Positions 19,401-60,282 are shown, counted from the first letter of the whole stretch. The stretch is 63,852 bases of DNA, filler included, from Reticulomyxa filosa (GCA_000512085.1; 20 parts of 20 records of this genome joined end to end with filler, not necessarily neighbours in it), one strand, 5' to 3'. The notes: generated by a model from the sequence alone, not told the origin. Program-made: numbers and translations.

Positions 19401-21151
19401 ATATTCCATCAAATAAGATTACCAAGTTTTTTTTTTTCTTCATTTGAAGAAACATCTTCATCATTTCTCCAATAAATCATTCAAATTGTACACATTTGTA
19501 TACACATCATCATCTGTTCGCGTTTTTTCTTTGTCTTTTTTCTAAATATGCAAAAACGATGGGAAAATTTAAAAAAGACTTATATTTCAAACAAACAAAC
19601 AAAAAATGATCTTCGTTTAAACTTTGCTTGCTGATTCGGTTGAGACGCAGCATTCATTGTTACATTTCCTCTTTTCTATACAATTTTTTTTTGCTTGTTT
19701 AGTTGTTTTTAAAAATGGTACTATTCAAAAGACATTGCACAAAACTTCATTTCCAACTTGTGGCTTGTTGTCACATATATTCTCTTTTTCATCTATCTTT
19801 TTCATTTCATTGTGCATTGCACATTTGCGTTCACAATACTTCATGTTCGATTCATTCATTTTCAAAATCAATTTGTAGTTGACGTTATGTAAATGTTCAC
19901 TTTTCTTTTTCATCTTTGTTATGTACACGCAATTGAAGAAAGAATCCATGTTTGTAGATGTATTCTAATGCTCTATGCAAGATACGTTTGTTGTAATAGC
20001 GCTCGTTCAATGATTTACTTTTTCTTTTGTCCCCTCTTTTTCTTTTTTTTCAGTATCATTACCACAAAAAAAACATCATGATTATAAAAATGTCGTCCCA
20101 AAATAACTTTGACTATGATTTAATGATTTCTTTCAACTTCTCTTTTGTTTGGTGATCATTCAAAAGTGACAACTAGAGTATGTGAAGTCGATCCGTTTTG
20201 ATATAGTTACTCAGACTTTCAAGATCATGTCATTTCATCTCGTTACTTCATTCAAGACAATAATTGGAAAGTAGTAAATTCAAACAGTTTATTGGAATTT
20301 ATTGACAATCAACTTTTCACTCATTTTTGGATCTCTCTGATCACTGCTCATTACAGAAATCATTTCTTTTCTCATTTCGTAATATAAAAGCATATTTGTA
20401 AAGTAAGTTTTCGATACGCCTTTTTTGTAAATTTGTACAATGGTTGCGTAATAAGCGGCAACTGCGAGAAATAAATCAATGTACTGTTTAATATCCAAAA
20501 AATGAAGCAGTGAGTTTCAATCATTGAAAGTGACAAATCTTTTATTTTATTTTTTTGAACTTAAGACGACGCAGATATGCTTTAAAAAAATTAGCTTGTT
20601 GATTTTTTTTAACGAAAAGACGTTAATATTCCAAAATTTAACGAAATGATGGCTGGTTTTAAGAAAACGATTGTATAATGACAGCAAAAAAAATGGACAC
20701 TTGGATGTTGAATTTTATTCTGACGTAAGTAAAGTTTTTGGAATACAAGTTAAAAAAAAGCGTTTTTGGAGTCGTATTCTAATCTTTTTTAACAATAAAC
20801 AATGTAATAAGATGCACGCGCAACAAATAAACAAAACATCCAGTCAATCACTAATAAATCTGACCAATCAGTCCCAAAGCCATGTAGATATGCAAATGTA
20901 TTATTTCCTAGCAAAAAATTTTTCTATCATGTTTGGCCCCTACGAAGCGTTCATTCTTTTTTCAAAGCAAAATCCAACAGAAATTTAAAAGACATTTTTA
21001 AATGTTAATATTGAAATAAAAATTTTTTTCCACTTGCAAATTTTAAAGAAGAAATAGTATTGCGGCGTTTTGACAGAACAATATTAAAAGAAAAAATCTT
21101 TTTGTTTTCCCATTTTCATTGCCATAATTTATAATTCAATATTTCTTGAAG

Positions 21152-22059
21152 ATGGCAGAGACAAAAGCTCCAGCACAGGCACCAGCACAAACACAAGAAG
21201 CACAAGCAGCAGCAGCAACTACAGATGTCAGTTGTGTTTCTTCGAGGCTTGTGGACTTGTCAGTTTTTTACAAAAAGTTGACACAATTGCAATGGAAAAT
21301 GTTGAATCACAGAAAAAGAAAGAGCCAAGAAAAGGCCCACCAGTCTCCCACGACACCCTTGTCTTTGGTGTGGCTCACATATATGCATCTTTCAACGACA
21401 CATTTATTGTTGAGTTTATCTCTTTAACCACTATTCTTTTTTTTTTCCTCCCTTTTTGTTCTGCGCATTCCCGCACTTTTTTTTTTTTTTTTTTTCTTCA
21501 TGCACTTTGCGAGTATAAAACGTAATCACACAAATAAAAAACGGGACTATTGGGCACAGCACGTGACAGATCTGTCCGGACGTGAAACGGTTGCCCGTGT
21601 AACCGGAGGAATGATGGTGAAGCACGACAGAGATGAGTCGTCACCGTACGCTGCCATGCAAGCAGCCCAAGAAGTTGCCAAAATGTGTTTAGACCGTGGC
21701 ATCAATGCCGTTCACATTCGATTAAGGTAACCCAATTTAAAAAAATCACCTTTTTTTTTTTTTTTTTAATAAACAAAGAGAGAGGATTATTAATTTTTTT
21801 GTTTGCTTTTTATTGTTTGCCAAAAAAAAAAAAAAATTATAAATATGTGTTGTATAAATAAAAATAATAAAAATTACACCTGCCATAAAATTGCAGGGCA
21901 ACAGGAGGTGTCCGCACAAAAACTCCTGGACCAGGAGCACAATCGGCATTGCGAGCGTTGGCAAGAAACAACTTGAAAATTGGCAGAATTGAAGACGTGA
22001 CTCCTATTCCTCACGATTGCACTCGCAGAAAAGGTGGTCGTAGAGGTCGTCGTTTGTGA
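21152..22059 (+). CDS. RPS14: 40S ribosomal protein S14 (uS11); 4 exons
   Basis: Exons 21152-21226, 21313-21408, 21560-21726 and 21897-22059 give [15 protein letters not shown]|[52 protein letters not shown]. Confidence 0.98.
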
Positions 22060-33287: not shown

Positions 33288-34285
33288 TCACAAATCTTCA
33301 ATGGGTTCAGACATATGGTGATTATTATGTTCATCTTCATCAGGCTCATTAGCATCCTCAAGTCCAAGCATTTGGTCCTCTACATATGCAAAACAACCCG
33401 CAATTGTGTGTAATAAAAAATTGTGCTTACAAAAAAGAGGTTATTATAAACAAATAAGTGAATATATAAATAATACATGTGGTATATATTTAAATGTATG
33501 TACATTACAAAAAAAAAAAAAAAGAAAGACAAACCAAAATTGTCATTTTCATCAGGATAGTTGCCATCAGTATTTTCATTATCCACAGACATTTGCAAAT
33601 TAACATCATTTTCGTCATCAGCTTCCACAGCCAATAACGTGATAATAAACACCAAGTCACTATTCGGAGGTACCAGACCACCGGCGCCGTGAGTTCCATA
33701 CCCTAGCCGCGATGGTACCCACACTTTGGCTTTTTCTCCTTCGCTCATGGTAAGTAAGGCTTCTTCTAATCCCGGGACTTGACTGCTGACGCCCAATTGT
33801 GTGCGATGTTCGTAGTTGGCAATTTTTCGTGGTGTAAACTGCTCCCAGCGACCTTCGAATGTGATTGTTTATTTGTGCTTACTTTTATGTCACTATTTTA
33901 TATACATATATACATATATGTATATATATATATATTGACCAGTATCTCTGTGATGAATATAGCCCAAATATTTATATCGAACAAAAGAATAAGGCAATGG
34001 ATAAGTAGTGCCATTGCCAGGTTTTAATGTTCGAAAATCAATTCGACTGTAGTCGTCATGAGGAAAGGGGTCATCACTATCATCGTTTTCTTCGACATGT
34101 TCGTTGTCCTCATCTTGTTCATCGTGTTCATCATGTTCCTCCTCCTCCTCCTCTTCCTCTTCATTGTCGTCTCGGTTGGATTTCAGTCCCCCTTTGTCGC
34201 GTTTCGTCAGAGCCTTTGTATTTGCGGCGTCATCGGAAGACGGGACGGTAGTAGGTCCCCCAGGCGTGTCGTGATTTCCAACAAC
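33288..34285 (-). CDS. FKBP-type PPIase domain protein with acidic flanks, 5' partial
   Basis: Spliced exons give TLKPGNGTTYP..VRYKYLGYI..LGVSSQVPGLEEALLTMSEGEKAKVWVPSRLGYG..GGLVPPNSDLVFIITLL. Last exon ends TGA at 33290-33288. Confidence 0.85.
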
Positions 34286-39443: not shown

Positions 39444-39630
39444 NNNNNNNNNNNNNNNNNNNNNNNNNNNNNNNNNNNNNNNNNNNNTTAATTAATTAAN
39501 NNNNNNNNNNNNNNNNNNNNNNNNNNNNNNNNNNNNNNNNNNNTTTTTTTTTTTTTTCGTTTTACAAAAAGTGTAAAACGAAAAAAAAAAAGTTCAAACC
39601 AATCAACAAACTAAAAAAAAAAAAAAACAC

Positions 39631-40102
39631 CTGTAATTCCATACATCAGGATGACGATAGGGGTGGTCACTTGGGGCGACTTGGCTTGTGGCTCCACTTG
39701 GACACCTTTGGGAAAGCGCCAAAACAAAGGAACTTTCTGTCCATCACTCAAGGCGAGCAATTCGACCTCGTCAAATTTGATAAATTTCCTGTTCCATTTG
39801 GATTCGAAGATGTAACAGAACAATTGCATGTAACCACCAAAACCTACCACTGGCGGGTAGTAGATCTTGTCCAATAGCTTACACGACTTGATCAATGGCG
39901 TGGTTGTCTCATTCTTGTAGTAGGTCAGCTTTGGCTTATGTGCCACGCGGAACCAGTAATACAATACATACGCCAGCACCCACGCCAATGCCAACTTATA
40001 CCAACGTCTTGACGTCGCATCCGAAGAAGTTTTTTGGCCAACAAGCAAGCTTACCACGTTCTTAGGTAAGAAGCGTTCCAAATAGTCTTGCATGCTGCTC
40101 AT
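39631..40102 (-). CDS. ABHD1/2/3 (YheT-like) alpha/beta hydrolase, 5' exon
   Basis: N-terminal TM anchor, YYPP..GGYMQ, ELLALSDGQKVPLFW, PIVILMYGITG. Confidence 0.8.
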
Positions 40103-40452
40103 CTTTTGTTTTTTCACATTATGCAACAAAAAAAAGACCCTTCCACATTCTATATGGCATTACTTAAATTTCCGGAAACTTTCGTTGCATGCTACTTGTG
40201 TGACAAATAAAAGCTTGAAGAAGTGAAAATGAGGCATTACTAATGTCTTGGTATTCGTGTTTATAATTAAAAAAAGATTGTACAATAAAATTTAAAACAA
40301 AAAATACGATTGGAAAAGTATTGTCACTTTCAGGGAGACGTCACTACAAGCAGGTTTTTTTAACAGAGCCATTTTTATACTTAAAAAAAAATTTAAGAAA
40401 AGTTTTGTGCAAGTATAATCAATAATCAAAGCAAAGGAACCAAACATCAAAG

Positions 40453-42643
40453 ATGAGTAGGGCTGAGGATGAAAAACAATATCAAACCGAACTGCTTTCA
40501 GTTCCATTTGAACTTCAGTCATGTTTTGACAAGAACTGGGTTTTGCAGTTAAACGAACCGGAACAAGTTAATAATTTTATTTGTACAGTTTGTAAGCAAG
40601 TGGCCAACAATCCGGTTGAGATCAATTGTCCCCAACATGAAGATTTAGACACAAAATTGATTGCAGGTGAGAATTGTTTGAAGCAATTCCTAGTCAAAAG
40701 CAACAATATGTGTCCAACTCAATCTCATGATGGCTGTAGTTATACTAAAAACAAATTGGCACAACAAAGCATTGAGGGTTTAACTGTGAAATGTCCAAGA
40801 CAATTCCAGCAATGTCTGAATGTATCTGGAAGAAATAAGGAAGGGCAATCATTTGAAAATATGACAGTGATATGCGACTTCAAAGGGCAAATAAAGGATT
40901 TGAATAATCATTTGAATGAAGCATGTGAGTTGGAATTGTCGGAATGTTGGTTTAAATTTTTTGGATGCAATCATATTTGTCCAAAATATAAATTAGAGAA
41001 TCACCTGATTTCAATGATGAAAGAGCATTTCGATTTAGTGATGAAAGCATCTGCAGTGATGCATCAAACCATCCAAAAACTACGAGTTAGATCTGTTTGT
41101 TTTTGTTTTTTTACTCGAATATTTACAAAATTATATAACCATATACATATATGTATATATGTATATTATTTGCACAAATAGGAAATAGCAGAGCAATTAC
41201 AACGGGAACATGAAAGACTAAAGTCAGTAACTCAAGTGAGCGAAAAGAGACAACAAGAAGCAATTTTAAAACTATTTAACGAGAATTATCTTTTGAAGCA
41301 ACAATTGCTGCAACAACAGCAACATTTACAAGCTTCTAATAATTACCAGGTATGCTGTACATAATGATTAACAAATATATACCTCATGACAACGCATATC
41401 TTCAATAGGAAACTCTTGTTCATCAGCTTGAAAAATTGAAACAAGAAATACAAAGTCAAGAAGGAATAATATTGGAAAAAGATAACAAAGATAACGAAGA
41501 AAAAGACGAAAAAGAAAGAGAAGGAGACAAAATGCAATTGAAGTCCGCAAACAAAAAATCAAATACTCCAAGTTTTGATGTATTTCGTTTGGCTTCATTA
41601 ATCAAAACTTTTAGAGGGCATTTCAGTTATGTATACAGTATTGATCATTCAACATCCGATGGTGGCCGATTTCTTTGTTCTGGATCAAATGATAAAACAG
41701 TTCGTGTATGGCATGTAGAAATCGCAAAACAAATGTATTCATTTAAAGAACATTTAGGTGCTGTAAATTGTGTAAAATTTTCACCATATCATTATCATCA
41801 TCATCATTATCGTAATGTCGTTTGTTCTTCATCAGCAGATCGAACTATTCGTTTTTGGAATATCGGTCATAAAAAATCATTCAAAGTATTAAATGGACAC
41901 AAGAACGATGTGAATGGTATTGCATTTTCATCATTTGATGGTGGTCGATATTTGTGCTCTGGGTCACATGACAATACAATTCGTTTATGGAATGTTGAAA
42001 CATTTAAATCATTACAAGTTCTAAATGGACATACAAATACTGTTTGGTGCGTGGCATTCTCTCCATTGCGAAATGGTAATAACAATGCTAGCAAAAGTGA
42101 GAATATTTTTGTGATTGGTGGTAATGGATATACTATTTGTTCTGGATCGTATGACAATACTATCCGTTTATGGGATGCTGAAACAACCAAACAATTGATG
42201 ATATTCGAAGGTCATCACAATGCAGTGCTTGATGTAAAATATGGAACAAGTGGACCAGGAGCTGCAAATACAATATTATCTGGATCTGCAGATGGAAGTA
42301 TTCGTTTATGGGACATCCGATCTAATCGACAAACTCAAGTGTTTAATGGGCATGGAAACTGGGTAACTTGTGTCGAATTTTCACCATTTACAAATAGTAG
42401 TGAATTTGGTAATTCAACTGTATTGTGTTCTGGCTCAATGGATAACACAATTCGTTTTTGGGACATTCGATCAAATAAAAGTGAACTGTATGTAATCAAA
42501 GGACATACCAAAGATGATTCAATATTATGTCTTAAATTTGTATCATTTAAATGGGAAGGGAATACAAAGGAAAGAAAGTACGATGGTGGCTGCTTCAAGT
42601 TGTATTATGGTTCTTACCTTGGCCTATTCACGTTTGGGGATAA
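40453..42643 (+). CDS. RING/TRAF-like zinc finger, coiled coil and WD40 protein of the expanded family; 3 exons
   Basis: Exons 40453-41085, 41182-41349 and 41409-42643. CxxC..CPQH..GENCL..CP..HDGC, CPRQF, CDFKG, CWFKFFGCNH, then ~6 WD repeats. One missing C at ~42623 restores the family terminus GPIHVWG* (TAA 42641-42643). Confidence 0.85.
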
Positions 42644-43329
42644 GATTTTTTTTTCAGATTTTTGAAATTTAAGAAAGTAGGACATAACTTTGTATTATCT
42701 GACTGAATCGATCAATAGAGTTCGTTTTTTTGCTGAAATTGGAGCGCTCTGAAAATATTTTTAAAATAATTTTTCGCATTTTTATTTAGTACTATAGTCG
42801 ATGTCTTGACTGCAAAATTTTGATATACTGAATGTAATTGTAGAGACGTCGCAAAACACAGAGAAAACAAAAAAACTTATTTTTGGAAAACGAGGAGTAA
42901 TTTTACATTTCATAAACCAATTATTTTGTCACAAGATATTGCACTCGTTTATCTATCTGATGAAACTTGTATACTGAGTGTATCATTTGAATAACCTTTC
43001 TTTTTTTTTGTTTCAGAATTGACTCCCATAATCGTAATGTTTTATCAATTCAATATTACTATCACTTAAAGAAAATTTCATATCCCATCCTTTTTGTTTG
43101 TATTAACATATCTCGTTATTTGTTCTCTTGTCTCCAAAAGTTTAGCAAAAAAAACCTTTAAATGAAAAAGGGTACAAAATTCAACGTTCGTATTTAATCT
43201 ACAAGAATACTTGCCATACTTCTGCTACAAATAAAAAATAAAATAATAACTACTATAACACTAAAATTGGTAAATCTCGCATTTTAGGAAGATTTTTTGC
43301 TTGTCAAACCAACGTGACCTGGTGAACTG

Positions 43330-44398
43330 ATGAATCAACAAAAAAAGAAAGAGGAAGAAATAAAAATAGTAATTAGAAATTGGCTTCAAACTCTGGAAGT
43401 GCAAATTGGATGGATTGACGATTTTGACAAAATTGTTGCCAAATATGTTAAAAATTTTTCTTTTTTCCAAGTTCAACTGAGAGTATTTTTTTGTTATTGT
43501 TACTTATCTAAAATAGTGCAAAGATTTTGAAGTGATAAAAGTTTTAGAAGGACATATGGGCGATGTAAATAGTGTAAGATTTTCACGAGATGGAAAGATG
43601 ATTGTTTCATCATCAAATGATGAAACAGTTCGAATATGGAATGTTGAGTCAGGTAAACAAATTCAAATCCTCAGAGGACATTCAGATTGGGTCAATGTTG
43701 CAGTATTTTCACCAAATGGAAAGACTGTTGCTTCATGTGCGGATGATAGAACAATTCGATTGTGGGATATAACATCAGGAAAAGAATTAAGGAAATTTGA
43801 AAAAAAAGCATACACAGTAAATTTAAATTTTTCCCCTGATGGTAAAACCATTGCGTCGGGTTCAACAGACGGAACAATACAATTATGGGATGTAAATAGT
43901 GAAAAAGAGATTAAAAAATTGTTAGGACATTCAGATACTGTACGAAGTGTACAATACTCATCAGATGGCCAAATGATTGTATCATCATCTAAAGATGATA
44001 CAATTTGTATATGGAATATAAAATCAGGCAAAAGGTTAAAAGAATTAAAAGGACATACGGATACTGTAGAAAATGTAAACTTTTCCCCAAATAATCAATT
44101 TATTGTTTCATGTTCATATGATAATACAATTCGAATATGGGATGTAAAATCAGGAAACCAATTGAAAATATTGAAAGGACATAAAAGTGATGTAAATGAT
44201 GTAAAATATTTTCCAGATGGTTCAACTATTGTGTCATGTTCAGATGATGAAACAATTTGTTTATGGGATGTAAACTCAGGACAAAAAATACAAGAATTAA
44301 AAGGATGTTCTAAGCGTATATTAGGAATTGATATTTCACCAAATGGCAATATAATAGCATCAGGCTCTAGAGATCGTATAATTCGAATTTGGGGATAA
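43330..44398 (+). CDS. WD40 beta-propeller (7 repeats) with short EEEI..W..GWI.DFDKIV leader; 2 exons
   Basis: Exons 43330-43446 and 43517-44398; seven GH...WD/WN repeats ending IRIWG*. Confidence 0.9.
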
Positions 44399-44683
44399 AA
44401 ATAAATAAAAAAATCTAATTTGATTATTTTATGAATTGATAACTTTTTGTTAGTTGTTTAAAAAAGAAAAAAGAAAAAAAATGAAGATATTGATGTTATA
44501 TCTATTTAATTGAAATAANNNNNNNNNNNNNNNNNNNNNNNNNNNNNNNNNNNNNNNNNNNNTTAATTAATTAANNNNNNNNNNNNNNNNNNNNNNNNNN
44601 NNNNNNNNNNNNNNNNNNCTAACGTTTTTTTTTTTTTTTTTTTTTAAAATAAAAAAAAAATGAATTTTAAAAAAAATGGTCAG

Positions 44684-47600
44684 CATTGGGACCAAATGCT
44701 TGTTGTATCCACGGAGATGTGCGATTTCCAACATGGCATCGTCTGTTGTTGGTGCAGTTTGAGAACGCATTGCGGCGATGGAACTTGAGCGTGGCAATAC
44801 CGTATTGGAACTGGGCCAACTCATCGCTTGGTGGTTTCCCGGATTTGGTGACACGTGTAAACTTCACCGACCCAGAGACGCAAATTACGTATAAAAACCC
44901 GTGGTGGAACTATCGCATTCCAGATTACACGGTGCAACGTGGGGAAGCGTTTAACCCAAACAACACGTGCAAATACGTTTGTCGAAATCCTCAGCCAGAA
45001 CTATTCGAATACACACGCCCAAACAATTTCCCTGTGTCATTTTACAGACAACTGCTGCAATCGTATGAGTATGATAACTGGATCGTTTTCGACTTTATGT
45101 TTAGTTTATTTAAACAAAAAAAAAAAAAAAAACAACTCATAAATAATAAACTGTAATGCATTTATTATACATGTACTAAATGTTATTTACTTTACGTATA
45201 TATATATGTGTACATGTATATATTTTTTGAATCTTCTCTCTCATTCTTAATATGTGATTTTAATTGTTTAACCATAAATACAATTTTTTTTTTTAAAAAA
45301 AAAAAAAAAGGTTTGAAATACCACACAACAACGTACACAACTTGATTGGTGCGACAATCTTGGACTTACTGACGGCGACCTTTGATCCCTTGTTTATGCT
45401 GCACCACATGGGCGTGGAGAGATACTTTTTGATTTGGCAACAACTGACCGAGTATCGCAACATAAGCTACCGTCCAAACTCAACACAAATCAACGAGTAC
45501 TTAGGGTGCTTTGTGGAAAAGTTCCACATGGGCGATCGTCTGATGCCATTCAATGGGAGCAGTGGGCAAAACTACGACCCGACCACCAGCAAGTTCGGGT
45601 ATAGTTCGTTCGACACAATGAACTGGGATCAAATGCATTACTCTTACAATCCCTATCCGGAAGCTTTCTTTGGGCCTTTCAAAGACGTTGCGGAGTTGGC
45701 CAATTTCTTGCATGCCCAAAAGTATGAGTCGGAGAGGTTATACTTGGGTTGGTACTTACCCGATTTGCCGTTTACGTATCGCATCCACTACGCTGCAAAG
45801 AAATACGGTACCAACACTGTTATTGTTAATGGATCGTTTGCCAAACTCGGCTCGTCCCCGACCGTGGCAGGTCTAAACAAGTTTTTATTCCGTGTCGACA
45901 TCACCGAGGCCATGAACTCATCCGGACTTGCCTTGGACAACCTCGTCGAAGTTGACGTCTTTGTTACCAGCGACAAAGACAGCAACACACCTGCTGTCAT
46001 CATTCCTCACCCGGCCATCATTTATCGCTCCGATGGACAAGAGGTCTTCCGTCTCTTTTGGGGACCTGAGTACTTCAATATCAGTACTGGCGAAGACATT
46101 CGAATCATCTTAGGTTCTCTTTGTGCATGCTCATGTTTTTCCAAAAAAAAAAAAAAAAAAGAAGGGGAAGTTCAAAACATTCTTTGATGCAAGTTATACG
46201 TAGCATGAAGTTTTTTTTTTAAAAAAACCAGTAACAATAGTATTGCTAAATTAATAAATAAATTGAATATTTTTTTTAAATAGGAACCGAGGTAACGCGC
46301 ACCTCACAAACCAGTCAAGGCCAACAAGGCCTACAACTGATCAAAAAAACTGAAAAACAGACTTCGGTGATTTTGGGCAACCAATTCAGTAACGTGTTGC
46401 GCGTCGACCAAAACGAACTAGTGTTCACACAAACCACTATCGGAAACGCTGTCAATGTGTCGGTGTCCACACTAGTATTCAACAGCAACGTTGTGACTCA
46501 GTCGTTTTACAGTGACGAAGAGCAGGTCGACTACGGCCCAACCATCCTCACGCAAGAGGGGCCAAACATTTTCCAAATCGCCGACTTGAAAACGCAGATC
46601 CACATTTATGCCGATCAAATCGCTTCGCAGGGTTTCCATGGGACTATTTTCACCAACTCTACTGCGCAATTCAGAAGCACCGAACTTGGCCACGTAATCA
46701 AAAAAAAAAAGTGTTTCAAAAACGTAAAGATTCAACCCCTTTTTTTTTTTTTTTTAAAAAAAAAAAAACAACAATGAAATAGGCGGTAGTGCCTCTCGAC
46801 AGAGAGTTGCTAAAGTATGACCACGAGCTGTACGGAAACGTGTTTATATCGTATAATTTGGAAGAGGTGGACTTTGTATCGTGCGGGAACTCGTCATTGA
46901 TTGGGTGTCTGGTGAATGATGAGACGAGTTGGAACGATTGTAATGTGGGCGATCAGTGCTTTGGTAGCTTTCCGATTATTGACAAAGCAGGGATCCGGTA
47001 CTTTGTGGCCAACAACAAAACTCTGTGCGAAATGGGCATGAAGATTGCGTTTAATGCGCAATATGTAACGGCAGTATCGAACGCGACCAGCACGGCTTGT
47101 AAGAATCTCGGCATTCCACACAACGCACGATGGACTAGTCATGTGATTGACTCTGCAGGCGCAAACGTGCAGTTTGGCCTATCGCTCGGTGGGAAACAAT
47201 GTGAGGCGTCGTATTGGATTGAGGGCCCTGTCGATAAAGGCTGGTTCGCTGTTGCATTGTTTGGTCCTTATCATTTTATTGGGAGCAGCGCCACGCAAAT
47301 GCAAGGCTTGTCCATTGTTGCCACAAACACCGGCAACTCGTGGTCGTTTGCGCTGTACCTTTTGCAAGGATCTGGACAACATAGCATCAGTGAACTTCTC
47401 ATTTGCGATCAACAGGTCGTCAATGGTCGTATCCGCGCCAATTGCTCCAGCACACTGATCCCAGAACGAACTGTACCTATTTTCGCTGACAAATTCTTGG
47501 ACTACATGCCATTAAACTTCCCGAAACTTGAACCTGATGTTTCTTACTACTATCTTACTGCGTGGAGAAATTATTCTGATCCTGGTTTGTTTGTTTTTTT

Positions 47601-47814
47601 TGCCAAAGGGGAGGGCATTCGGTATGAAATAAAATTTTGTTGGATGCTTTAATGTTGTTGCAAAAACTATATAGGGTTCAGTCAGAGACATGATAAATAC
47701 TTTATTGGAGGCACTTATCAATTCACTTCGGAAATATCCGGCGCTGTCTCCTTCGTTGCTCAGCCAAAACTTTTGGTTTTTATTCTGTGCTTGTTTTGGT
47801 GGGCTATCTTCTAG
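44684..47814 (+). CDS. Type-3 copper protein (molluscan hemocyanin/tyrosinase-like unit) plus cupredoxin-like, DOMON-like and GPI-signal-like tail; 5' partial, at least 5 exons
   Basis: Exons 44684-45098, 45311-46113, 46284-46693, 46783-47584 and 47675-47814. CuA ACCIHG..FPTWHRLLLVQFENAL..IPYWNW; CuB FEIPHNNVH..FDPLFMLHH..VERYFLIWQ; beta-sandwich GSFAKLG..LFRVDITEAM..PHPAII; RYFVANNKTLCEMGMKI; GWFAVA..QMQG..QRHD; terminus SEISGAVSFVAQPKLLVFILCLFWWAIF*. Confidence 0.85.
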
Positions 47815-49404: not shown

Positions 49405-49473
49405 AGTAAAACAAATGATGAGAATAAATTAAAAAGTGATAGTTCAATCAAAGGCCCAATTTATGTTTGGGAT
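49405..49473 (+). pseudogene. Degenerate 3' end of a WD40-family gene
   Basis: agttcaatcaaaggcccaatttatgtttgggataa = SSIKGPIYVW.., a variant of the GPIRIWG* terminus, convergent on the gene at 50086. Confidence 0.5.
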
Positions 49474-50085
49474 AAAAATATGTAAATAAAGCTTTTTGAT
49501 TTATCTTTTTTAAGATATCATATTACCAAAAACGTAAATATTGAATGTAAACGGATTCTTAAAATAATACTTTTTCGACATCTTTGTTTTTAGATTGATA
49601 TAAATGGATATAGAATGTGATATCGTGAAAGATATATAGATAGAGCTATCTTAAGATGGACTATTCCTGAGATTAAAAGGGTCTTTTTATCTGATTGCAT
49701 TCTTTTGAGTTGTTGATCATCATATCTTGCTTCAGGAGAAAATGTTGTTTTTGATAATGCACAATGATGCCCTTTTTTTTTTTATCCTGTTTTAAGTGTT
49801 CGATACCATACAAAAAAACAATTTAAAAATTAGTAGTGAAGAAAACGCAATACTAAAAATATTTTGCAACTTATTTTGATATTTGATACAAGTCTTATTG
49901 GTTATGCTTTTCAATTCTTTAAAAAACATCGAATACAACTTTTTCAATTTTTTTAAACAACAAAATAAAATAAAATATATCGTTCAATGCTTGCATTCGA
50001 TCAAATCAAGCAAGTTTGATATCACCTTACTTTAATCAAAGTTTTTTTAAAAAAATTTTATTTCTTATCCGACAAAAAAAGTAAA

Positions 50086-50413
50086 TTATCCCCAAATACG
50101 AATAGGACCATTTTCTGAACCATAACACAAATTCAAACCATATGTAACATTCTTTGTATCATTTTTCTTTTTCAATGCAATAAATTTAAGACAATATATT
50201 CCATTATATTCTTTATTATCTCCTTTAATCATATACAGCTCATTTTTATTTGATCGAATATCCCAAAAACGAATTGTATTATCACTTGATCCAGAACAGA
50301 TCACATTTGAAACACCATTACTATTCTTTATCACAAATGGTGAATATTCAACAGACAATACTTGCATCATATGTCCATTGAACATTTGAATTTGTTTACC
50401 AGATCGAATATCC
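50086..50413 (-). CDS. WD40 family protein, 3' fragment
   Basis: DIRSGKQIQMFNGH..ICSGSSDNTIRFWDIRSNK..LCYGSENGPIRIWG*; paralog of 41409-42643 and 59895-60282. Confidence 0.85.
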
Positions 50414-50513: not shown

Positions 50514-51099
50514 ATATAGATGGTAATGATAATAAAAGCAAGAAATATTTGATTGTGAAAACATATTATTGAATTTTTAGAAGAAGAAGAAGAAAAATTT
50601 TATCAAAAAAATTATGATAATTCAAGGAAAATCAGGATCAGGAAAAAGTTTATTTTGTAGACATTTAGAAGAAATATTATGGAATAAATATAAATCTAAT
50701 TCACAAAATTATATTCCTATTTATATTTCATTACCAAAAATTTATCATAAAGAAAATGAAAAAGATATTATTTTACAATTTTTACAAAGTAAAAATATTA
50801 CTAAAGAAACTATAAATTCAATTCGTGAAAAAATATCATTTATATTTATTATGGATGGATTTGATGAAATATATGATTTTTATCGTAAAAATAATCATGA
50901 ACAATATTTTTATAATCGTTTTAATTTAAATCAATGGAATGCAAAAATAATTATTACATGTAGAAGTAATGTATTAAATGATGAAGATATTAATAATAGT
51001 TTAATTAATATAAATAAAAATCAAAATATAATAACATCAATGATATATTTATGGCCATTTACAAAACAACAAATGCATAATTATATAGAAAAATTTGTA

Positions 51100-51138
<39 letters not shown>

Positions 51139-52431
51139 TGGACATCACAAGAATATGAAACAACTTTAAATAATTTTCCAAATTTACAAAAAATGATAGA
51201 AGAACCATTTCTTCTTAGACTTATTTTAACTGTATTACCATCATTAGTAAAACAATATGGTATAGGAAGTAAAATTTCAAAAACACAAATATATGAAGTA
51301 TTTAATAATCAATGGATTGATACTCATTGTCAAGATATTATTTCTAAATTATCAGAATTACGTATTCAAATAAATATTAATAAAATTAAATTAAAATTAA
51401 AACAATATTGTCTTAATTTAGGATTTGATATGTTTTATCAAGGAAATCAAGTTGCAATTGAATCAGAATATCAATATCAAAATAATGATGAAATTTTAAA
51501 TAAATTAGATCCAATAATAGAAAAAGAAAATAAAAATAATGAATATGAAAAAATAGATATAAAAATAATAGATAATAAAGAAGAAAAAGAAGAAGATATT
51601 TGGGAAAAATATTTTAATGCTGATAGTATTGCAAAATATGTATTAAGAAGAATAGGTGAAAATAAATATCAATTTTTACATAAATCTTGTCAAGAATATT
51701 ATGCTGCACAAAAAATTATATATGATATTATTTCTTGGAAACCTAATCTTATTAATATTAATTATATTGATAATCAACAATTTCAACAACAATTTGAAAT
51801 ATATGTATCAAAATTATTACTTAATTATAAATTATTAAATGAAGAAATTGGAATTATTCAATTTATTGCAGATAGAATTCATGATACAAACTCAATATTT
51901 ATAAATTTAAAATCAAGATTATTTCGAATTATTGAATCATCTAAAAATAATCCAAAAGTATCTATTGCAGCATCAAATGCAGCTACTATACTTAATATAG
52001 CAAAAGTTAGTTTAAGTAATAAAAATTGGGATAAAATAAATATACCACATGCTATTTTAGATTATGCTTTTTTGGAAGGAACTAGTTTTAAAGAAGCTAA
52101 TTTAGATTATGTAAGATTTTTTCATTCATTCCTTAATTTTGCAGATTTTACAAATGCATCTATTAATCAAATAAATTTTGGTGAATATGGTTATCTTAAA
52201 GGACATTCAAAAATAGTTACTTTTGCTCAATTTTCACCTGATGGTTCCAAAATTGCATCAAGTTCATATGATAAAACTATTCGATTATGGGATGTATTAT
52301 CTGGAAAACAAATTCAAATTTTTAAAGGACATTCATCAATTGTTACTTCAGTTCAATTTTCACATAATGGTTCTAGACTTGTTTCAAGTTCTTATGATAA
52401 AACTATTCGAATATGGGATATATTATCTGGT
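50514..52431 (+). CDS. NACHT NTPase, pentapeptide repeats and WD40 (NLR-like), internal fragment
   Basis: Walker A GKSGSGKS, Walker B FIMDGFDE, IITCR, EPFLL, YQFLHKSCQEYYAA, AASNAATILN, pentapeptides (ILDYAFLEGTSFKEANLDY), then GHS..WD repeats. Confidence 0.92.
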
Positions 52432-59180: not shown

Positions 59181-59894
59181 NNNNNNNNNNNNNNNNNNNN
59201 NNNNNNNNNNNNNNNNNNNNNNNNTTAATTAATTAANNNNNNNNNNNNNNNNNNNNNNNNNNNNNNNNNNNNNNNNNNNNCCAAGGATCATCAATTTCTC
59301 ACCAGATTAAACTTGTTGTTTCTTAAATTATTGTTCAAAATAATGTTTCTGTTATTTTACATGCCCAAGTGATGTAAAAGCATATAGGATATGATATAAT
59401 GAAGGATATATTCTCTTTGAGCTTAGAAAGTTATCTTAAGATGAACTATTCCTGAGATAGTAAAGGATTTTTTATCTGATTTCATTTTTGAATTACTGAT
59501 CAATTATATCTTCAGGAAAAAATGTTGTTCTTAACAATGCACCCTGTTGTCCTTTTGCTTTATCTCTTTGAGTGTTCAATACTATACAAAAAACAATAGC
59601 AAATAGACATAAAAAAAATATTTTTAAAAAATTAGTAGTGATTTGCAATGAAGAAAACACAATACTTGAAACACCTTGCAATTTATTTTGATATTTTGAT
59701 AAAATATTTTGTGAATTCTTTAAAAAACATTGAACGAAGCTTTTTTAATGTTTTTTAACAACAAAGTAAAATAGAACACATCTTTCAATACTGGCATTCA
59801 AGCAAATCAAACAAGTTTAATATCATCTTACTTTTCTTTTAATCAAACTTTTCAAACAAAAGCATTTTCATTTCTTATTCGATAAAAAAGTAAA

Positions 59895-60282
59895 TTATCC
59901 CCAAATATGAATGGGACCGTTGCTTGAACCATAACACAAATTCAAATCATATTTAACATTTTTTGTCTTACATTTCTTTTTCAATTCAATAAATTTAAGA
60001 CAATATATTCCAAAATATCCATCTCCTTCGATTATATACAATTCACTCTTATTTGATCGAATATCCCAAAAACGAATTGTATTATCCAATGATCCAGAAC
60101 ATATCACATTTGAATTACCAATACTATTCTTTATTACAAATGGTGAATATTCAGCAGACAATACATAATCTGTATGTCCATTGAACACTTGGATTTGTTT
60201 ACCAGATCGGATATCCCACAAACGAACACTTTTATCACGTGATCCAGATAATATTGTATTCAATAATTCATTTGATCCATAT
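59895..60282 (-). CDS. WD40 family protein, 3' fragment
   Basis: NTILSGSRDKSVRLWDIRSGKQIQVFNGH..LCYGSSNGPIHIWG*. Confidence 0.88.

Follow-up and report, generated by a model that had tools for sequence, protein, structure and literature searches.

Here, we describe a gene of the foraminiferan Reticulomyxa filosa (GCA_000512085.1) that carries a hemocyanin-type dicopper unit in a non-animal host. The analysed stretch of DNA (the window; 63,852 nucleotides) consists of short R. filosa contigs strung together by N44-TTAATTAATTAA-N44 spacers, and the gene lies on the + strand of the contig at 44619-48182, in five exons and truncated at its 5′ end. Splicing of four GT..AG introns (17-32% GC) yields a single open frame of 855 residues, in which one hemocyanin-type unit with five of the six copper histidines is followed by a phytocyanin-like domain, a predicted heme-binding DOMON domain and a predicted anchor; the family occurs in two foraminiferal lineages. 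Since the unit is fused to a predicted heme domain and a predicted cell-surface anchor, the protein is likely to be a surface phenol-oxidising enzyme and not an O2 carrier, and on balance its sequence leads us to favour a resident, latent cell-surface phenoloxidase. A preliminary description, made from the DNA alone, had recognised a molluscan-hemocyanin-like functional unit (FU) and implied a role in O2 handling; it overlooked the C-terminal 475 residues, which hold the phytocyanin-like domain, the DOMON fold and the anchor, and a single anchored unit suits an enzyme better.

The contig opens with the 3′ remnant of an intron (44619..44683), a poly-T/poly-A tract that ends in AG. Because the contig begins within an intron, the signal peptide and the first CuA histidine are absent from it, and tblastn with six relatives found the 5′ part of the gene nowhere else in the window. 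Exon A (44684..45098; PF00264, 59.8 bits) holds the CuA half of the tyrosinase core. Exon B (45311..46113) contains the CuB site (PF00264, 46.8 bits), the hemocyanin beta-sandwich (PF14830, 31 bits against a cut-off of 24) and the start of a segment here called domain X, so that both families proposed for an HMMER check were matched, far above chance. The remainder of domain X, conserved with a paralogue and free of Pfam matches, forms exon C (46284..46693); exon D (46783..47584) encodes the phytocyanin-like domain and then most of the DOMON-fold domain, as judged by profile, fold search and alignment; and exon E (47675..47814) encodes the terminal DOMON histidine, a short linker and a hydrophobic tail ahead of the stop at 47812-47814. 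The intervening GT..AG introns are located at 45099..45310 (212 nt, 17% GC, with a 17-long poly-A run), 46114..46283 (170 nt, 24% GC), 46694..46782 (89 nt, 19% GC) and 47585..47674 (90 nt, 32% GC). The splice sites are based on homology, not on RNA. Removal of the first intron brings back the molluscan hemocyanin spacing ahead of FEIPH and the CuB helix, and the last splice adds a histidine and a hydrophobic tail that are both also present in full-length relatives. The gene had been taken to end at 46113, and the NCBI model (P0001) starts later, runs into introns, among them that at 47585..47674, and lacks the last exon; exon E, absent from both, is thus new and would supply the terminal histidine and the anchor. 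A protein search recovered the gene's own database entry, named 'tyrosinase, partial [Reticulomyxa filosa]', for which matches to PF00264 and PF14830 had been precomputed; the pair was therefore already in the automatic annotation.

Among 1.84 billion representatives, an unseeded search retrieved 85 matches at E 0.001; with word-seeded protein searches, nothing beyond the protein of the window itself and two Bolivina models came back. Six of the 85 are close relatives (P0007, P0004, P0009, P0012, P0008 and P0011), each with one copper core or a tail. P0007 and P0004 are adjacent R. filosa models on one 8068-nt contig and together represent one paralogue, which breaks or reads through at three intron positions of the window gene: P0007 reads through at 45099..45310, and P0004 reads through at 46114..46283 and stops at the donor of 47585..47674. 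P0009 and P0012 are transcript models of Bolivina argentea, whose full form, P0092, came from a later search, and we infer a foraminiferal source for P0008 and P0011 because each pairs with a Bolivina sequence (support 100/98 and 100/100). The two hosts belong to different groups, the monothalamids (R. filosa) and the rotaliids (B. argentea). All three full-length relatives (P0008, P0011 and P0092) contain a single unit, followed as in the window gene by domain X, the phytocyanin-like domain and the DOMON fold, and the N-terminal half of the paralogue has one core. Pattern scans of metagenome contigs and GTDB genomes, which are insensitive to spliced or distant genes, yielded no relatives.

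The motifs of the preliminary description, including NPW, RNPQPELF and the beta-sandwich series, can all be read in the + strand translation where they were placed. CCIHG begins at 44701 and contains Cys 44704 and His 44710, a Cys-x-His thioether motif whose bond is predicted, and the histidine of WHR (44737) is the third CuA ligand. The CuB site comprises Glu 45315, His 45324, Asn 45327 and His 45336 of FEIPHNNVH, together with His 45402/45405 of FMLHH. The gene therefore has the five copper histidines claimed for it; the sixth, which had been expected upstream of the contig, is seen in P0007 and in all full-length relatives, and P0008, P0011, P0012 and P0092 have all six. Two disulfides are given for the molluscan hemocyanin core in table 1 of PMC3658974. 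The Cys pair that would form the first is present in the complete relatives; unlike molluscan units, the foraminiferal rows lack a Cys that would belong to the second, which is substituted at the molluscan YCDF position in 6/6. Passages of PMC11803259 describe the series of Cys-x-His, waterkeeper Glu and Asn after the first CuB histidine for type 2 polyphenol oxidases (PPOs), list the thioether Cys two residues ahead of the second CuA histidine as a feature of type j and state that the Asn permits tyrosinase activity.

The beta-sandwich spans approximately 45729-46031. Among the relatives, PF14830 scores 26.9 bits in P0092 and 12.6 in P0008, and P0011 and P0004 have no Pfam match; nevertheless, the five foraminiferal members align as one profile that matches molluscs (HHalign probability 97, versus 77 for environmental relatives and 0.85 for the fungal shield). 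Hemocyanins headed the PDB searches for exon A and exon B alike, and a family profile of eight foraminiferal rows scored 142-178 bits against single hemocyanin units and 68.6 against the best other protein, in keeping with the earlier claim that the unit is closer to mollusc hemocyanin units than to generic tyrosinases. Identity to 18 molluscan units is 22.7-29.7%. Leu 45846 aligns with the conserved Leu of the molluscan LGG loop, which we assume to be a placeholder over the active site, and is kept in four of the five members. A fold match to the hemocyanin beta-sandwich (Z 6.9) was obtained with residues 53-164 of the paralogue tail as modelled by AlphaFold; since the alignment used for folding included molluscan sequences, this match is not independent. 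A scan of 401 genomes from a single bacterial phylum for PF14830 was negative, and no positive control matched there either. Compared with P0092, the Bolivina model P0009 lacks about 143 residues from position 382, including the whole shielding beta-sandwich; it may be a splice form that is constitutively open, or else an artefact of assembly. Among other proteins, P0086 and P0018 (MMETSP and JGI) join a tyrosinase to a weak PF14830-like region and to a domain for peptidoglycan binding, and an M10 metallopeptidase closes both P0086 and P0081 (ENA); this fused protease could self-activate the enzyme.

Between the beta-sandwich and the phytocyanin-like domain, domain X comprises about 160 residues that are predicted, at low model confidence, to be beta-rich. 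It has no Pfam match, and HHalign gave 0.08 both to FU-h tails and to the phytocyanin-like domain. The idea of a second cupredoxin was dropped; the long fold alignment to KLH1-h is partly biased, because the folding alignment included two FU-h tails. For the C-terminal part as a whole, we relied on the model of the paralogue tail (18 rows, mean predicted local distance difference test score, pLDDT, of 59), which was searched against 48,161 chains; all of its matches have Z under 8, and its DOMON region was covered by foraminiferal rows only. Folding exon D from its sequence alone gave no usable model (pLDDT 33), a phmmer search of the paralogue tail against the PDB returned noise only, and atlas feature searches, which serve as leads only, gave 0.84 for the whole protein and 0.94 for the last domain to bacterial clusters.

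The phytocyanin-like domain ends near 47064 in exon D. Its family profile matches stellacyanin (E 0.003) and cucumber basic protein (E 0.006) in the PDB, residues 332-429 of the paralogue-tail model match phytocyanins at Z 5.5-6.2 (mavicyanin: Z 6.2, root-mean-square deviation, rmsd, 3.0, 83 aligned), and PF02298 (phytocyanin) stays under its cut-off. Two cysteines are kept. The type-1 copper ligands are missing: at the positions in the C-terminal loop that we take to be those of the ligands, Cys is replaced by Ala or Ser and His by Leu, Ala or Ser in 5/5 members. Against the molluscan FU-h tails the domain reached a probability of 95.6 and a score of 48.9 (30 shuffles, <=17.6), which does not rank them above plant phytocyanins.

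The DOMON-fold domain begins near 47119, with Met715 at 47299, an inner histidine at 47380 and the terminal histidine, His815, at 47689. Residues 449-604 of the paralogue-tail model match dopamine beta-hydroxylase (Z 6.5), the cytochrome domains of cellobiose dehydrogenase (Z 6.8, rmsd 4.1, 125 aligned) and the cytochrome b of pyranose dehydrogenase (Z 5.8), and six DOMON-type structures are among the fold matches (Z 5.2-6.8). An M-x-G motif is present in all five members and is followed 91-106 residues later by a histidine in all four complete sequences; the histidine at 47689 aligns with those of P0008, P0092 and P0011. The Met/His pair is predicted to bind heme, and passages of PMC10691727 describe a comparable pair, Met286/His379, in an insect CYBDOM protein. 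The inner histidine, His742, belongs to a second invariant G-x-H, 25-30 residues past the Met in 5/5 members, which distinguishes the domain from known heme DOMON proteins. The chain closes with a hydrophobic tail at about 47770-47811 in exon E, judged by eye to be of the glycosylphosphatidylinositol-signal type; P0011 likewise ends in a hydrophobic tail and P0008 in a segment of transmembrane length. The three full-length relatives all have an N-terminal hydrophobic stretch, a probable signal peptide.

For the phylogeny, 85 cores were extracted and 11 duplicates or fragments removed, leaving a quick tree of 74 rows, followed by careful trees of 48 rows (core only) and of 40 rows and 407 columns (core plus beta-sandwich). 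Among the molluscan rows, Bradybaena similaris and Gigantopelta aegis are tied to names and the rest are labelled by architecture; the trees are without named tunicate, brachiopod or annelid sequences. The 40-row tree resolves foraminifera (100/99), molluscan units (99/98) and ten environmental proteins (97/99) as clades, sets the three together apart from other protist and fungal sequences (99/98) and leaves their branching order open. The tree from the core alone gives the same picture (93/95 for the three as one group; 84/46 for foraminifera with molluscs). A direct sister relationship of foraminifera and molluscs, which had 89 in the quick tree, was rejected as a claim because the longer alignment left the fork open and the alternative, molluscs with the environmental clade, had p 0.32 in the approximately unbiased (AU) test. 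Grouping with fungi, the outcome that the preliminary description had set against its own proposal, is contradicted by the best tree and the beta-sandwich comparison, although the AU test did not quite reject it (p 0.057). The relevance to hemocyanin origins that had been suggested is supported by a core-plus-PF14830 unit in a host gene, in a clade beside the molluscan units. The environmental proteins (P0024, P0034, P0043/P0089, P0052, P0065, P0072, P0079 and others) are single-unit and hemocyanin-related; one of them shows the TSP1-tyrosinase order, reported only for tunicates in passages of PMC9395347.

The closest known system is the molluscan functional unit, especially FU-h (PPO type j; PDB 3QJO, 9KZL and 1JS8), with which the foraminiferal protein shares the tyrosinase core with PF14830, the Cys-x-His motif, the Glu and Asn beside the first CuB histidine and the downstream copper-less phytocyanin-like domain. 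The foraminiferal protein differs in that it has one unit instead of seven or eight, inserts about 160 residues ahead of the cupredoxin domain, and adds a DOMON domain and a membrane anchor; in the best tree its units form their own clade outside FU a-h, and its predicted hydrophobic tail argues against a soluble decamer. By membership and architecture it is not a hemocyanin. The nearest functional precedent is the tunicate Tuphoxin, in passages of PMC9395347 a single hemocyanin-related unit with a copper-less cupredoxin domain and a putative tunic phenol oxidase. Like Tuphoxin and the urochordate 'hemocyanins' (clade B in passages of PMC3730353), the foraminiferal proteins are single, presumably secreted units, such units often carrying a copper-less cupredoxin domain; unlike them, they occur in a non-animal host, carry a DOMON domain and an anchor and lack TSP1 and EGF. 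No TSP1 match was obtained in any foraminiferal protein by a scan that detected TSP1 in P0072. The predicted fold and the spacing from M-x-G to the terminal histidine resemble heme-binding DOMON domains (the cytochrome domain of cellobiose dehydrogenase and CYBDOM, in passages of PMC10691727), although here the domain is fused to a type-3 copper unit and not to a flavin or cytochrome b561 domain. In contrast to the fungal long tyrosinases and plant catechol oxidases (PPO types l and i), the shield matches the molluscan type; the fungal shielding domain PF18132 had no Pfam match in the window protein or its relatives.

On these features, we propose that the protein would be secreted and kept on the outer membrane, where its two coppers would bind O2 as at every type-3 site. 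The beta-sandwich would cap the substrate pocket until displaced or cut; the opened site could then oxidise phenols, or protein Tyr or 3,4-dihydroxyphenylalanine (DOPA), to quinones, which may cross-link an extracellular matrix such as a cyst wall, an organic lining or cement. The DOMON domain would carry a b heme between Met715 and His815 and hand over single electrons, returning the two coppers from resting Cu(II) to Cu(I), the form that binds O2, while the copper-less phytocyanin domain and domain X might act as structural spacers or docking surfaces. Re-reduction of the copper pair by the heme, drawn by analogy, is the least certain step. Shielding of the active site is described for other type 2 PPOs in passages of PMC11803259, and parts of PMC4041863 report that an opened molluscan hemocyanin becomes a phenoloxidase.

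Several points weigh against a latent surface phenoloxidase. Active-site residues cannot separate enzyme from carrier, because hemocyanins share them, and Asp replaces the Asn after the first CuB histidine in two Bolivina-like members, P0011 and P0012. The electron path from heme to copper is presumed from cellobiose dehydrogenase. The DOMON call relies on Z values under 8 and on a paralogue model of low mean pLDDT, Pfam DOMON gave no match even at E 10, and the Met/His pair is likened to heme ligands through motif and spacing, not superposition; one bacterial DOMON aligns weakly (score 21.8, shuffles <=19.4), with its last histidine on the same column. The C-terminal tail of P0092 falls below the hydropathy threshold, and no paper on quinone tanning in foraminifera was found among the literature matches listed.

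An unlikely alternative, though the best placed of the others, is a surface oxidase or oxygenase whose substrate is not a phenol, or a scavenger of O2, with the heme as electron source at each turnover. Ordinary phenoloxidases draw their electrons from the substrate and need no cytochrome. A Met/His pair kept in 4/4 complete members speaks for this role, as does the other chemistry that passages of PMC11803259 attribute to some type-3 enzymes. However, the pocket residues are those of phenoloxidases and hemocyanins, and the chain has no Pfam match to a membrane cytochrome b561 or a flavin domain that could feed the heme.

We regard as less likely still the role implied by the preliminary description, that of a true O2-binding protein (a store, buffer or sensor) at the cell surface. 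The complete hemocyanin-type unit with its molluscan-like shield and the retained LGG-loop Leu are what such a protein would show, and the heme could repair oxidised copper. Nevertheless, one O2 site per approximately 1000 residues in a single membrane layer would store little, the 7-8 tandem units that define respiratory hemocyanin in passages of PMC11803259 are lacking, and the Bolivina model P0009 is without the entire shield, though this may be an assembly artefact.

Little credence, somewhat below that of an O2-binder, is given to an old transfer of a mollusc FU-h-type gene that was later fused to DOMON and the anchor; the function would be the same, and the gene would be silent on hemocyanin origins. 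FU-h is the sole molluscan unit with a cupredoxin tail, which the foraminiferal phytocyanin-like domain matches, and the AU test did not reject foraminifera with FU-h (p 0.090 and 0.097). However, the free trees hold all 18 molluscan units together with the foraminifera outside (99/98 with 40 rows; 98/93 with 48), and identity to FU-h-type rows (27.1-29.7%) falls within the all-molluscan span. The cupredoxin domain may moreover be ancestral, since tunicate proteins carry one too. Within the FU-h clade, a single-unit protein of the land snail Bradybaena similaris (P0026 and P0088), with a signal peptide and a cupredoxin tail, sits on a long branch and has Leu-His at the last CuB histidine where other units have His-His; it possibly represents a secondary return to the single-unit state. 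Animal contamination or mis-assembly can be dismissed as very unlikely despite the short, 5′-truncated contig, because an R. filosa paralogue shares the intron breaks and Bolivina argentea has relatives of the same architecture; identity to any molluscan unit is just 23-30%, exon GC (46-48%) lies inside the 32-49% span of seven other long frames in the window, and the introns are host-style, as had been noted.

The 20 spacers of the window are identical and link unrelated contigs; sequences on the two sides of a spacer are not adjacent in the genome. By eye, translations elsewhere in the window show WD40-repeat genes and a P-loop (NACHT-like) frame at 39544-44518, 49405-50413, 50514-52431 and 59281-60282, families that we assume to be expanded in R. 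filosa, and ordinary genes resembling DJ-1/PfpI (1403-2114), ribosomal protein uS11 (21088-21727) and FKBP (33383-33868).

The foraminiferal family is a new architectural variant and a new taxonomic branch of hemocyanin-type copper proteins. No report of a foraminiferal hemocyanin-like or tyrosinase-DOMON protein was found among the literature matches listed, subscription journals being mostly outside their scope, and Reticulomyxa was not found in the searched supplementary files of PMC11803259, PMC9395347 and PMC3730353, of which further tables may bear on novelty. Two published surveys assign the lineage to animals only, namely to molluscs (type j, passages of PMC11803259) and to brachiopods and tunicates (clade B, passages of PMC3730353). 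Nor did the literature searched yield a surface-anchored protein in which a type-3 copper site is joined to a predicted heme DOMON domain. Tentatively, the protein could be a new kind of surface redox enzyme, in which a membrane-anchored type-3 dicopper oxidase is served by a b-type cytochrome of its own, and could stand for a branch of the molluscan hemocyanin lineage outside animals. If so, the ancestral unit would have been a single enzyme with a cupredoxin tail, an origin that the foraminiferal clade favours, and it would have passed between early animals and foraminifera ahead of the multiplication of the units. The clade would offer an outside reference for the hemocyanin unit prior to its role as a blood pigment, and with it a possible transfer of genes between protists and animals in ancient times becomes open to testing. 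If the heme is real, electron delivery to a dicopper site could be studied here within one natural chain. The protein may also be a first candidate among enzymes that could harden the organic layers of shells and cysts in foraminifera.
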